Of a stretch of DNA of 64,000 nucleotides, positions 1,985 to 8,115 are shown piece after piece. The notes beneath the pieces were generated by a model. That model was not told where the DNA came from. It was given only the letters and a program-made list of their open reading frames with translations, and searched no databases. The translations under genes were made by a program, and so were the position numbers. Every line of letters begins with the position of its first letter. Position 1 is the first letter of the stretch. The stretch comes from Escherichia coli (GTDB lineage Bacteria; Pseudomonadota; Gammaproteobacteria; Enterobacterales; Enterobacteriaceae): assembly GCF_048403405.1 (NCBI RefSeq), contig NZ_CP183129.1; one strand, written 5' to 3'.

Positions 1985-4018
1985 TCACGCGTCCGGGAAC
2001 ATCACGCTATGGCCCGGCGCTTCACGATGGAGATGGATAAAGTTAAGGTGTCGCTCGTACTGGTCGAGAATATCGGTGATCACCTGCTCTTTGCTGTAGT
2101 CCATCAGGTCGTTGCCCTGGCTGCCTTCTAACAGGAAGGTTTCCAGCCGGTAGTAGGTCGATTTCCCGCTACGTGCGCGGTAGGTAAAGCCCGGCACCGA
2201 ATATTGCTGCGGCCAAATCTGATAGACAAAGTTTTGCTCTTCGCCCATATGCACCAACAAATCCAGATGCCCCAACTGTTGCCCCTCTTCCGGCGGCAGG
2301 CTTTTTAGCTCCACGTACGCGCCGCGCAACCGCAGCTCCTGCGCCACTTCTTCCATTGCCGGGTAACAGACCGTCTCCATCATCTGTTTAGTGTAACGCG
2401 TGCCCGGATAATTCATCAGGCGCGAGAGACGTTTTTTCCAGCTCAGGCGATCCTGAAGCCCCAGCGGTCGCGGCGCGGTATCACGGTTGGCACTTTCACG
2501 GCGGTAATCTTCTACCTTCAGAGATTTATACAACCCCGCCATCACGAAGAAAATCACAAAGCTGAACGGCAGCCCCATGATTACCGTGGTGTTTTGCAGC
2601 GCGGATATCCCGTTGGTCATCAGCATGCCGAGCGTCAGCAGGCCAATCGCCACCGACCAGAAGACGCGCAGCCAGCCGGGGGCGTCGCTGTTGATATCTT
2701 TAAGCTGCGAGGTGAAATTCCCCAGCACCAGCGCCCCGGAGTCCGCCGAGGTCACATAAAACAGCAGGCCAGTAATGGTGGCGACGGAGGCGCTAAAGGT
2801 AAACGCCGGATACTGCGCCAGCAGGCTGTAGAAGCCGCGCTCCGGATGGACCATCGCTTCCTCGGCAAATGCCGCGCCGCCGTGGATGATTTCATACAGC
2901 GCGCTATTGCCGAACACCGAGAGCCATAACAGCGTGAAGGTAAACGGAATAATCAACGTGCCCAGCACGAACTGGCGAATGGTACGCCCGCGCGAGATAC
3001 GCGCCAGAAACAGGCCGACAAACGGCGACCATGCCACCCACCATGCCCAGAAGAAGAGCGTCCAGTTATTCATCCACTCAACCGGACGGTCGAAGGCAAA
3101 ACTGTTGAGCGTCATGCCCATAAAGCGATTCACATAGTCGCCAACGTTCAGCACCAGCGCATTAAGCAGGAACGAGGTGTCACCCATAAACAGCACGAAA
3201 AGGATCAATCCCAGCGCCAGCGCAACGTTAAGTTCCGATAACACACGAATGCCCTTATCGACACCGGAGGTGACAGAGATCGTGGCGATGATCACCGACA
3301 AGGCGATCAGTGCCGCTTTCGCCGCCATTGAATCGGGAATATCAAACAGTACGCTCAAGCCATAGTTAAGCTGCACCACACCGATACCGAGCGTAGTGGC
3401 AATACCGAAGATGGTGCCGATTACCGCTGCAATATCCACTGAATGACCAATCGGCCCGTTAATCCGTTTACCGAAGATCGGGTACAGCGCCGAGCGGATG
3501 GTGAGCGGCAAATTATAACGATAGCTAAAGTATCCGAGCGCCATGCCCATCAGCGCATACATCGACCAGCCGGTTAAGCCGTAGTGAAACAGCGTCCAGA
3601 CCATCGCCTGACGCGCGGCCTCAATCGTCTGACCCGCGCCTTCCGGCGGCTGCATATACTGCGTTACCGGTTCGGCTACGGAGAAGAACATCAGGTCGAT
3701 ACCGATCCCGGCAGCAAACAGCATCGCCGCCCAGCTCAGCAGGCTGAATTCCGGTTTGGATTGTTCTGGCCCGAGCTTCACCGAACCAAAACGCGAACAA
3801 GCAATACAGACCACAAAGACAATATAGAGCGTTGCCGCCAGCAGATAGTACCAACCGAAGGTTTTAGAAACCCAGTCCAGCGTGCGGCCAATCCACAGGG
3901 CCGAGAAGTCGCGAAACAGGATCGTTGTCAGGGAAAACAACAAAATCAGTCCGGCGGAAGTGTAAAACACCACCGGATTGATTTTGTCCTTTTCCCTGCT
4001 GTGTGAAAGGTCTGTCAT
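1985..4018 (-). CDS. betT: choline transporter BetT (BCCT family)
   Basis: 677-aa ORF, N-terminus MTDLSHSREKDKINPVVFYTSAGL matches BetT; divergent from betIBA. Confidence 0.92.
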   Translation of the reverse strand: MTDLSHSREKDKINPVVFYTSAGLILLFSLTTILFRDFSALWIGRTLDWVSKTFGWYYLLAATLYIVFVVCIACSRFGSVKLGPEQSKPEFSLLSWAAMLFAAGIGIDLMFFSVAEPVTQYMQPPEGAGQTIEAARQAMVWTLFHYGLTGWSMYALMGMALGYFSYRYNLPLTIRSALYPIFGKRINGPIGHSVDIAAVIGTIFGIATTLGIGVVQLNYGLSVLFDIPDSMAAKAALIALSVIIATISVTSGVDKGIRVLSELNVALALGLILFVLFMGDTSFLLNALVLNVGDYVNRFMGMTLNSFAFDRPVEWMNNWTLFFWAWWVAWSPFVGLFLARISRGRTIRQFVLGTLIIPFTFTLLWLSVFGNSALYEIIHGGAAFAEEAMVHPERGFYSLLAQYPAFTFSASVATITGLLFYVTSADSGALVLGNFTSQLKDINSDAPGWLRVFWSVAIGLLTLGMLMTNGISALQNTTVIMGLPFSFVIFFVMAGLYKSLKVEDYRRESANRDTAPRPLGLQDRLSWKKRLSRLMNYPGTRYTKQMMETVCYPAMEEVAQELRLRGAYVELKSLPPEEGQQLGHLDLLVHMGEEQNFVYQIWPQQYSVPGFTYRARSGKSTYYRLETFLLEGSQGNDLMDYSKEQVITDILDQYERHLNFIHLHREAPGHSVMFPDA

Positions 4019-4146
4019 CCAGTATCCCCACTGTTATTGTTACCATTTAAAATCAAATTCGTAACAATTAAGACACATTTTATATTGAACGTCCAATCAA
4101 TAACCGCTTTAATAGATAAACAACGCTGATGAATGGAGTGGCGAAA
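4019..4146. promoter_or_regulatory. divergent betT / betIBA control region with candidate BetI operator
   Basis: 128-bp intergenic region; near-palindrome ATTGAACGTCCAAT at 4084-4097 and inverted repeat ATTGTTAC...GTAACAAT at 4034-4068; TetR-family repressors bind palindromes between divergent promoters. Confidence 0.45.
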
Positions 4147-4734
4147 ATGCCCAAATTGGGGATGCAGTCGATCCGGCGCAGACAACTGATCGACGCCACG
4201 CTGGAAGCAATAAATGAAGTGGGCATGCACGATGCAACGATCGCGCAGATCGCCCGCCGTGCAGGCGTTTCTACGGGGATCATCAGCCACTATTTCAGGG
4301 ACAAAAATGGTCTGTTGGAAGCAACCATGCGCGATATCACCAGTCAGCTGCGTGACGCGGTTTTGAATCGATTACATGCACTTCCGCAGGGCAGTGCAGA
4401 GCAGCGATTACAGGCGATTGTTGACGGGAATTTCGATGAATCGCAGGTCAGTAATGCTGCGATGAAAGCCTGGTTGGCGTTTTGGGCCAGCAGTATGCAT
4501 CAGCCGATGCTTTACCGTTTGCAGCAGGTGAGCAGCCGCCGCTTGTTGTCGAATCTGGTGAGCGAATTTCACCGCGAGTTACCGCGCCAACAGGCACAGG
4601 AAGCGGGCTACGGCCTTGCCGCGCTGATTGACGGATTATGGCTGCGCGCGGCACTGAGCGGCAAACCGCTGGATAAACCTCTCGCACACTCGCTGACCCG
4701 TCACTTTATTACTCAGCATTTACCCACCGATTAA
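4147..4734 (+). CDS. betI: TetR-family repressor BetI
   Basis: ORF 4129..4734; start at ATG 4147 ([16 protein letters not shown]...) gives 195 aa. Confidence 0.9.
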
Positions 4735-4747
4735 CCGAGGAGACGTG

Positions 4748-6220
4748 ATGTCCCGAATGGCAGAACAGCAGCTTTATATACATGGTGGTTATACCTCCGC
4801 CACCAGCGGTCGCACCTTCGAGACCATTAACCCGGCCAACGGTAACGTGCTGGCGACCGTGCAGGCCGCCGGGCGTGAGGATGTCGATCGCGCCGTGAAG
4901 AGTGCCCAACAGGGGCAAAAAATCTGGGCGGCGATGACCGCTATGGAACGCTCGCGTATTCTGCATCGAGCCGTTGATATTCTGCGTGAACGCAATGACG
5001 AACTCGCAAAACTGGAAACCCTCGACACCGGAAAAGCGTATTCGGAAACCTCAACCGTCGATATCGTTACCGGCGCGGACGTGCTCGAGTACTACGCCGG
5101 GCTGATCCCGTCGCTGGAAGGCAGCCAGATCCCATTGCGTGAGACGTCATTTGTCTATACCCGCCGCGAACCGCTGGGCGTAGTGGCAGGGGTTGGCGCA
5201 TGGAACTACCCGATCCAGATTGCCCTGTGGAAATCCGCCCCGGCGCTGGCGGCAGGCAATGCAATGATGTTCAAACCGAGTGAAGTCACCCCGCTTACCG
5301 CGTTAAAGCTGGCTGAAATTTACAGCGAAGCGGGCCTGCCGGACGGCGTATTTAACGTGCTGCCGGGCGTAGGTGCGGAAACCGGGCAGTATCTGACCGA
5401 GCATCCGGGCATTGCCAAAGTGTCATTTACCGGCGGTGTCGCCAGCGGCAAAAAAGTGATGGCTAACTCGGCGGCTTCCTCCCTGAAAGAAGTGACCATG
5501 GAGCTGGGCGGTAAATCACCGCTGATCGTTTTCGACGATGCGGATCTCGATCTCGCCGCTGATATCGCCATGATGGCGAACTTCTTCAGCTCCGGTCAGG
5601 TGTGTACCAACGGCACCCGCGTGTTTATTCCGGCGAAATGCAAAGCCGCATTTGAACAAAAGATTCTGGCTCGCGTTGAGCGCATTCGCGCGGGCGACGT
5701 TTTCGATCCGCAAACTAACTTTGGCCCGCTGGTCAGCTTCCCGCATCGCGATAACGTGCTGCGTTACATCGCCAAAGGCAAAGAGGAAGGCGCGCGCGTA
5801 CTGTGCGGCGGCGATGTACTGAAAGGCGATGGCTTCGATAACGGCGCATGGGTTGCACCGACCGTGTTCACCGATTGCCGCGACGAAATGACCATCGTGC
5901 GCGAAGAGATCTTCGGTCCGGTGATGTCGCTTCTCACTTATGAATCTGAGGACGAAGTGATTCGCCGCGCCAATGATACCGACTACGGCCTGGCGGCGGG
6001 CATCGTGACGGCGGACCTGAACCGCGCGCATCGCGTCATTCATCAGCTGGAAGCGGGTATTTGCTGGATCAACACCTGGGGCGAATCCCCTGCTGAGATG
6101 CCCGTTGGCGGCTACAAACACTCCGGCATTGGTCGCGAGAACGGCGTGATGACGCTCCAGAGTTACACCCAGGTGAAGTCCATCCAGGTTGAGATGGCTA
6201 AATTCCAGTCCATATTCTAA
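4748..6220 (+). CDS. betB: betaine aldehyde dehydrogenase BetB
   Basis: ORF 4745(GTG)..6220; ATG 4748 preceded by GAGGAG; aldehyde dehydrogenase family sequence, [16 protein letters not shown]-terminus. Confidence 0.92.
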
Positions 6221-6233
6221 CCAGGAGGTTTAT

Positions 6234-7922
6234 TTGCAATTTGACTACATCATTATTGGTGCCGGCTCAGCCGGCAACGTTCTCGCTACCCGTCTGACTG
6301 AAGATCCGAACACAACCGTGCTGCTGCTTGAAGCAGGCGGCCCGGACTATCGCTTTGACTTCCGCACCCAGATGCCCGCCGCGCTGGCGTTCCCGTTACA
6401 GGGTAAACGCTATAACTGGGCCTATGAGACGGAACCGGAACCGTTTATGAACAACCGTCGCATGGAGTGCGGACGCGGTAAGGGGCTTGGCGGGTCATCA
6501 CTGATCAACGGCATGTGTTACATCCGTGGTAACGCGCTGGATCTCGACAACTGGGCGCAAGAACCTGGCCTGGAGAACTGGAGTTATCTCGACTGCCTGC
6601 CCTACTACCGCAAGGCCGAGACTCGCGACGTGGGCGAGAACGACTACCACGGCGGTGATGGCCCGGTGAGCGTCACCACCTCCAAACCCGGCGTCAATCC
6701 GCTGTTTGAAGCGATGATTGAAGCGGGCGTGCAGGCGGGCTACCCGCGCACGGACGATCTCAACGGCTATCAGCAGGAAGGTTTTGGCCCGATGGATCGC
6801 ACCGTCACGCCGCATGGCCGTCGCGCCAGCACCGCGCGTGGCTATCTCGATCAGGCCAAATCGCGCCCTAACCTGACCATTCGAACTCACGCCATGACCG
6901 ATCACATCATTTTTGACGGCAAACGCGCGGTGGGCGTCGAGTGGCTGGAAGGCGACAGCACCATTCCGACCCGCGCGGCGGCGAATAAAGAGGTGCTGTT
7001 ATGTGCAGGCGCGATTGCCTCACCGCAGATCCTGCAACGTTCCGGCGTGGGTAGCGCTGAACTGCTGGCGGAGTTTGATATTCCGCTAGTGCATGATTTA
7101 CCCGGCGTCGGCGAAAATCTTCAGGATCACCTGGAGATGTATCTGCAATATGAGTGCAAAGAACCGGTTTCCCTCTACCCTGCCCTGCAGTGGTGGAATC
7201 AGCCGAAAATCGGTGCGGAGTGGCTGTTTGGCGGCACCGGCGTTGGTGCCAGCAACCACTTTGAAGCAGGCGGATTTATTCGCAGCCGTGAGGAATTTAC
7301 GTGGCCGAATATTCAGTACCATTTCCTGCCAGTGGCGATTAACTATAACGGCTCGAACGCAGTGAAAGAGCACGGCTTCCAGTGCCACGTCGGATCGATG
7401 CGCTCGCCAAGCCGTGGGCATGTGCGGATTAAATCCCGCGACCCGCACCAGCATCCGGGAATTCTGTTTAACTACATGTCGCACGAGCAGGACTGGCAGG
7501 AGTTCCGCGACGCAATTCGCATCACCCGGGAGATCATGCATCAACCGGCGCTGGATCAGTATCGTGGCCGCGAAATCAGCCCCGGTGTCGAATGCCAGAC
7601 GGATGAGCAGCTCGATGAGTTCGTGCGTAACCACGCCGAAACCGCCTTCCACCCGTGCGGTACCTGCAAAATGGGTTATGACGAGATGGCAGTGGTTGAC
7701 GCCGAAGGCCGCGTACACGGGCTGGAAGGCCTGCGCGTGGTGGATGCGTCAATTATGCCGCAGATTATCACCGGCAATTTGAACGCCACGACGATTATGA
7801 TTGGCGAGAAAATGGCGGATATGATTCGCGGGAAGGATGCGTTGCCGAGGAGCACGGCGGGATATTATGTGGCAAATGGGATGCCGGTGAGAGCGAAAAA
7901 AATGAGTCGTGATTTGAACTGA
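6234..7922 (+). CDS. betA: choline dehydrogenase BetA (GMC oxidoreductase)
   Basis: N-terminal FAD motif [14 protein letters not shown]; apparent TTG start at 6234 with AGGAGG 5 nt upstream; track ORF starts at TTG 6189 inside betB. Confidence 0.85.
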
Positions 7923-8115
7923 CTCAGGAACCTATCAGATTGAGAGTTACCGTTCTACTATGAGGACCGAATCCTTATATAAAACACTGAGGTAACTCTC
8001 ATGCTTCATATCCAGTATTCATGATGCTGGTTTTTTGCTGATATTTAACCCGAACACTCCTGATACAGCCTATTAATTCATTTATCTGCGGCAGATTTTA
8101 TTTTCTGGATATATT

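Follow-up and report, generated by a model that had tools for sequence, protein, structure and literature searches.

In the betI-betB-betA mRNA of Escherichia coli, the third cistron, betA, which encodes choline dehydrogenase, is very probably translated from the TTG codon at 6234-6236. This reading is drawn from a 64,000-nucleotide stretch of an E. coli genome (RefSeq assembly GCF_048403405.1, contig NZ_CP183129.1), referred to here as the window, and all coordinates are positions within it. Ordinary Shine-Dalgarno (SD)-directed initiation at a near-cognate UUG is the best-supported explanation of the arrangement. The same start had been proposed in a first-pass annotation of the window made from the letters alone, and it is supported by the reference annotation, by its near-invariance within E. 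coli, by the orthologues of other species and by the protein-family profiles. The TTG start of betA is already known, being the standard reference annotation, and the finding is in that sense correct but ordinary.

Anatomy of the betB/betA junction and identity of the product

The features of the junction are collected in Table 1. betB and betA are separated by a 13-nt intergenic spacer, and the distance between the betB stop and the betA TTG is the same in all the annotated strains compared. The TTG stands two codons before the conserved N-terminal Phe (6240), with no in-frame stop between them. A scripted search of the betA frame, from the TGA at 6174 to the FAD-binding motif, returned the TTGs at 6189 and 6234 as the only ATG, GTG or TTG codons, and the first in-frame ATG downstream of 6234 is found at 6372 (codon 47), beyond GAGSAG. 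A stretch complementary to the 16S 3' end is expected about 4-9 nt ahead of a start, and AGGAGG lies 5 nt ahead of the TTG.

Table 1. Features of the betB/betA junction and the flanking genes in the window.
Feature	Position	Strand	Basis or remark
betB, betaine-aldehyde dehydrogenase CDS, upstream gene in the betIBA operon	4748..6220	+	Stop TAA 6218-6220; RefSeq betB 1473 nt
TGA stop in the betA frame, limiting any N-terminal extension	6174..6176	+	Scripted frame check
TTG inside betB, alternative start, rejected (15 additional residues, 577 aa)	6189..6191	+	Spans betB codons GTT-GAG
Shine-Dalgarno AGGAGG	6223..6228	+	2 nt past the betB stop, 5 nt before the start codon
SD-start spacer TTTAT, 5 nt	6229..6233	+	Sequence read
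betA initiation codon TTG (predicted)	6234..6236	+	Annotated start in NC_000913.3 b0311 and RefSeq strains
betA, choline dehydrogenase CDS, 562 aa in the window	6234..7922	+	NCBIfam and Pfam matches
GAGSAG (GxGxxG) FAD-binding motif	6258..6275	+	Translation; functional N-terminus must lie upstream

Sequence reading and the script bore out every coordinate that the first-pass annotation had given for this region, confirming that a TTG at 6234 is preceded at 5 nt by AGGAGG, that the frame holds no ATG from the betB stop to the FAD-binding motif, and that the only other upstream candidate is the TTG at 6189 within betB, the last of these holding as far back as the TGA at 6174. It put the ribosome-binding site within the last part of betB, and this has to be corrected: the SD hexamer lies in the 13-nt spacer, and 2 nt separate it from the betB stop. 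The last betB codons are overlapped only by the wider ribosome footprint, not by the hexamer itself.

As a bare pattern, AGGAGG-N5-TTG is statistically unremarkable, occurring once in the 64-kb window against an expectation of 0.63, with at least one match in 49 of 100 shuffles. Its position is the informative part: the pattern is in frame, 13 nt past the betB stop and two codons ahead of the conserved N-terminus.

Profile searches were run on the long form of the protein translated from 6189, in which residue 16 corresponds to the TTG at 6234. The NCBIfam betA equivalog TIGR01810 passed its cut-off of 732.1 with 1024 bits, residues 19-552 being matched to profile positions 1-532, and NF002550, the choline dehydrogenase subfamily, scored 1000.7 against a cut-off of 605, aligning from residue 17. 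In the same long form, Pfam GMC_oxred_N (PF00732) covers residues 18-315 and GMC_oxred_C (PF05199) residues 408-539; position 1 of the GMC_oxred_N profile falls on the Phe at 6240, and the 15-residue extension implied by a start at 6189 is covered by no BetA or GMC profile. The genomic context is that of the bet locus, with betI-betB-betA in order and a divergent betT, and RefSeq names betB and betA at the match. By equivalog score, domains, motif and context, the predicted product of the window gene is a BetA choline dehydrogenase of the GMC oxidoreductase family. The betIBA genes have been described as one operon, or transcription unit (PMC5934670).

The mechanically produced list of open reading frames places betT at 1985-4018 on the minus strand, and betI (4129-4734), betB (4745-6220) and betA (6189-7922) on the plus strand. 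It over-extends betB, beginning it at GTG 4745 instead of the ATG at 4748 implied by the RefSeq length of 1473 nt, and starts betI at ATG 4129 (201 aa). K-12 BetI is 195 aa long and begins with MPKLGMQS, which would put its start at 4147 and make the listed betI over-extended too.

Reference annotation and conservation of the start

In the curated K-12 MG1655 record (NC_000913.3, b0311, NP_414845.1), the first base of betA is 327247 and the codon reads TTG. Alignment of the RefSeq betA starts of ATCC 25922, MG1655p, O157:H7, ET734 and O145 placed each at the equivalent of 6234, with TTG in all. The comparison with annotated starts in reference genomes that the first-pass annotation had recommended returned the same codon throughout. 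The RefSeq records do not count as independent witnesses here, since PGAP carries start sites over from protein families. The idea that the TTG is a start-codon polymorphism set against an ATG in K-12 was rejected, TTG being present in K-12, O157, O145, ATCC 25922 and ET734 alike.

The K-12 locus resembles the window in operon order, with betI-betB-betA and a divergent betT, and its junction, TAACCAGGAGGTTTATTTGCAATTTGAC, is identical, with the TTG start and the 13-nt spacer after betB. It differs in that the window carries a B2-type allele, and in the length of betA, which is 562 aa in the window and 556 aa in K-12, the start site being the same. Over positions 6150-6330, B2-type strains (among them ATCC 25922 and UPEC isolates) match the window at 100% identity and K-12 at 98.3%.

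The difference in length is due to the 3' end of the gene, where the window has a run of seven A (7893-7899; GCG AAA AAA ATG AGT CGT GAT TTG AAC TGA, to 7922), giving 562 aa, and K-12 has six (GCG AAA AAA TGA), giving a 556-aa protein that ends in RAKK. RefSeq lists betA as 562 aa in O157:H7 and as 556 aa in ATCC 25922, despite the identity of the ATCC 25922 5' junction to that of the window. Only 13 of 1625 records matching 7870-7950 are at least 99% identical to it. Either a true polymorphism in the length of the homopolymer or a sequencing error within it underlies the A7/A6 difference, which alters the C-terminal tail.

Across E. coli as a species, positions 6150-6330 were matched in 5179 of 5426 complete genomes, and the 71-nt junction at 6200-6270 was identical in 5093 of 5183 matching records. 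Junction queries in which the TTG was replaced by ATG or GTG found no exact match among the same 5183 records. The single junction variant that was sampled has its change at 6262 and leaves the start codon intact. From these counts, the TTG appears to be effectively fixed in E. coli.

Several observations on the distribution of the locus accompany these counts. The bet junction (6150-6330) is missing from 247 of the 5426 complete genomes, ten of its matches are plasmid-borne, and in one genome it occurs twice. In ET734 (L004, NZ_CP100922.1), a 5-nt deletion and substitutions affect GAGSAG, at the equivalent of 6262-6275, and RefSeq marks this betA as a frameshifted pseudogene. O145 RM9467-C1 (L125) has a C-to-G change at the equivalent of 6262, which turns GCC into GGC and GAGSAG into GGGSAG; its betA is annotated as intact.

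Beyond E. coli, orthologues were sought with a degenerate DNA pattern for the conserved BetA N-terminus, using one genome per species, which gave at least 120 loci, 117 of them analysable. At least ten of the 117 loci listed carry TTG at exactly the homologous codon and a GGAGG before it: four Enterobacter species, including E. cloacae and E. asburiae, Enterobacter sp. JUb54, Lelliottia nimipressuralis, Pseudocitrobacter faecalis, Citrobacter sp. R56, Klebsiella oxytoca and one MAG. In exactly that place, at least 19 of the loci listed, mostly from Enterobacterales, carry ATG instead; they include Trabulsiella, Pluralibacter, Kosakonia, Cedecea, Pantoea, Tatumella and Xenorhabdus. The remaining 88 loci listed comprise 87, mostly from Pseudomonas and Halomonadaceae, with an ATG 3-6 codons before the Phe, and one in which the closest in-frame start, also ATG, lies 17 codons upstream of the Phe. 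An ATG or TTG 2-17 codons before the Phe is thus found in 118 of the 118 loci examined, the window included.

The ATG-bearing orthologues (such as those of Trabulsiella odontotermitis, Pluralibacter gergoviae, Pantoea, Cedecea and Xenorhabdus) share with the window a start two codons before the Phe and a short spacer behind betB that holds a GGAG-type SD. They differ from it in having ATG rather than TTG, and often Glu as the second residue where the window has Gln. In several of them, an in-frame stop lies only 2-7 codons before the Phe, and in L010 and L052 it directly precedes the ATG. In Pseudomonas and Halomonadaceae, 4 or 6 codons lie between the beginning of the gene and the Phe, counting the start codon.

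In the TTG-bearing genera, third-codon positions at conserved residues are only 56-76% identical to the window (24-44% diverged). The SD-start spacer also varies in relatives (TTTTT in one form, the 6-nt TCATTT in another), with the TTG kept. In Enterobacter sp. JUb54 (L111) and K. oxytoca (L116), the spacer is 1 nt longer and the counterpart of the TTG at 6189 is out of frame, so that the proximal TTG is the sole possible start there. Retention of the TTG despite synonymous divergence and a variable spacer is a hint of constraint and no proof of it: the species concerned are phylogenetically related, and the ten out of ten are lineages rather than independent events.

Probable initiation at the TTG and competing readings

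In the mechanism proposed, AGGAGG (6223-6228) would pair with the anti-SD of a 30S subunit, or of a ribosome fresh from termination on betB 13 nt upstream, and the near-cognate UUG, five bases further on, would thereby receive fMet-tRNA. The product is predicted to begin fMet-Gln-Phe-Asp-Tyr-Ile-Ile-Ile-Gly-Ala-Gly-Ser-Ala-Gly-Asn, which would bring the FAD-binding beta-alpha-beta fold close to the very N-terminus, the arrangement seen in other GMC oxidoreductases. Among E. coli start codons TTG is a recognised minority, with 10 TTGs among the 688 database starts that one study confirmed by N-terminomics (PMC13245402), and expression from GTG and TTG starts has been put at 8- to 12-fold below that from ATG (PMC11445065). 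The combination of a weak codon and a strong SD would presumably set BetA output at a moderate level. A parallel is offered by the GTG start of E. coli lacI, where, as is proposed for betA, a near-cognate codon still recruits fMet-tRNA; lacI differs in that a fitness consequence of its start codon has been shown.

From the sequence, its conservation and the annotation, we infer that initiation in vivo takes place at 6234. A search of the accessible literature found no experiments on the betA start codon, and no N-terminal peptide, Edman sequence or initiation-profiling peak for betA; an entry for b0311/betA was likewise not found in the accessible portions of the TRAINSPOTTER tables (PMC13245402) and the TetRP supplements (PMC4909307). 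Absence from such N-terminus and initiation data is unsurprising, since expression of the bet operon needs oxygen, osmotic stress and choline (PMC5934670).

Starts other than 6234 fare poorly. Initiation at the in-frame TTG at 6189, whether as the main start or as a minor proteoform, would yield a 577-aa BetA with a 15-residue extension, and we judge it very improbable. This codon is the first in-frame ATG, GTG or TTG after the TGA at 6174, is the one reported by a mechanical ORF caller, and is present with an open frame in eight of the ten TTG-bearing relatives listed, but the betB codons GTT-GAG, over which it lies, account for its conservation, and it has no usable SD: pairing with the 3' end of 16S rRNA is worth -3.8 kcal/mol over the 20 nt before 6189, against -11.0 kcal/mol over the 20 nt before 6234. 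The out-of-frame counterparts in K. oxytoca and Enterobacter sp. JUb54 tell further against it, as do the in-frame stops that cut off the upstream alternative in many orthologues, for example L010, L052, Pluralibacter gergoviae (L059) and Trabulsiella odontotermitis (L117), where they stand 2-6 codons ahead of the Phe. The extension lies outside every family profile, and the codon is used by no reference annotation. Downstream starts, at ATC 6249, ATT 6252, ATT 6255 or the first in-frame ATG at 6372, deserve next to no credence. All four codons are in frame, but the three non-canonical ones lie 21-27 nt from the SD, beyond workable spacing, and would lose the conserved FDY, while the ATG would lose the whole GAGSAG motif; against all of them stand the upstream ATG or TTG kept at every locus examined and family profiles that begin at Phe or Asp.

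A different kind of alternative leaves the start at 6234 but has it reached mainly by termination-reinitiation after the betB stop, so that BetA output would be tied to BetB translation and a weak codon could be tolerated. We hold this to be a real possibility, though on balance a doubtful one. It would be compatible with a stop-to-start spacer of only 13 nt, inside the span of a few to about 20 nt taken for coupled junctions, and an SD starting 2 nt after the stop, and it gains from the conservation of spacer length and SD across the TTG-bearing genera, from the description of betIBA as a single operon (PMC5934670), and from the similar design of the betI/betB junction, in which TAA is followed by a 13-nt spacer with GAGGAG and then ATG. 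On the other side, the local RNA (6185-6275) is not unusually structured, with z = -0.45 relative to shuffles, and the centroid fold leaves the SD unpaired, so that nothing forces dependence on betB translation, and a strong, free SD allows independent entry of 30S subunits. Structure-gated coupling, a narrower form of the idea, is unsupported, since shuffled sequences fold just as stably and the SD is free.

The two internal junctions of the operon are alike in layout. Positions 4732-4750 (betI/betB, TAACCGAGGAGACGTGATG) and 6218-6236 (betB/betA, TAACCAGGAGGTTTATTTG) each consist of TAA, a 13-nt spacer starting with CC and containing a strong SD, and then a start codon. This shared design suggests that similar coupling may operate at both betIBA junctions. 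A possible BetB-BetA fusion, produced by frameshifting in the open-frame overlap at 6177-6217, was considered and set aside; no slippery heptamer was seen on reading the overlap, and the references list two genes.

Possible selection on the start codon, and significance

A further suggestion, which is tentative and in our estimation unlikely, is that the TTG and its strong SD have been kept by selection in the Escherichia-Citrobacter-Enterobacter-Klebsiella group, with coupled reinitiation holding BetA, a membrane-associated flavoprotein, at a fixed and lower ratio to BetB. If this were true, an ATG at the start codon would be deleterious. Retention in ten species, the variable spacer and the lack of a clean ATG or GTG junction among the 5183 E. 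coli records may be taken as hints of such selection, and as hints only.

For the annotation of the bet locus, the consequence is that a longest-ORF call for betA (6189, 577 aa) would be wrong and the reference start at 6234 right, and the importance of the result lies in annotation quality and little more. The junction illustrates a routine pattern, in which a near-cognate start codon is accompanied by a strong SD placed directly behind the upstream cistron's stop. Where betA is expressed heterologously, as in the engineering of osmotolerance, the native start would be the TTG, and exchanging it for ATG would probably raise expression.
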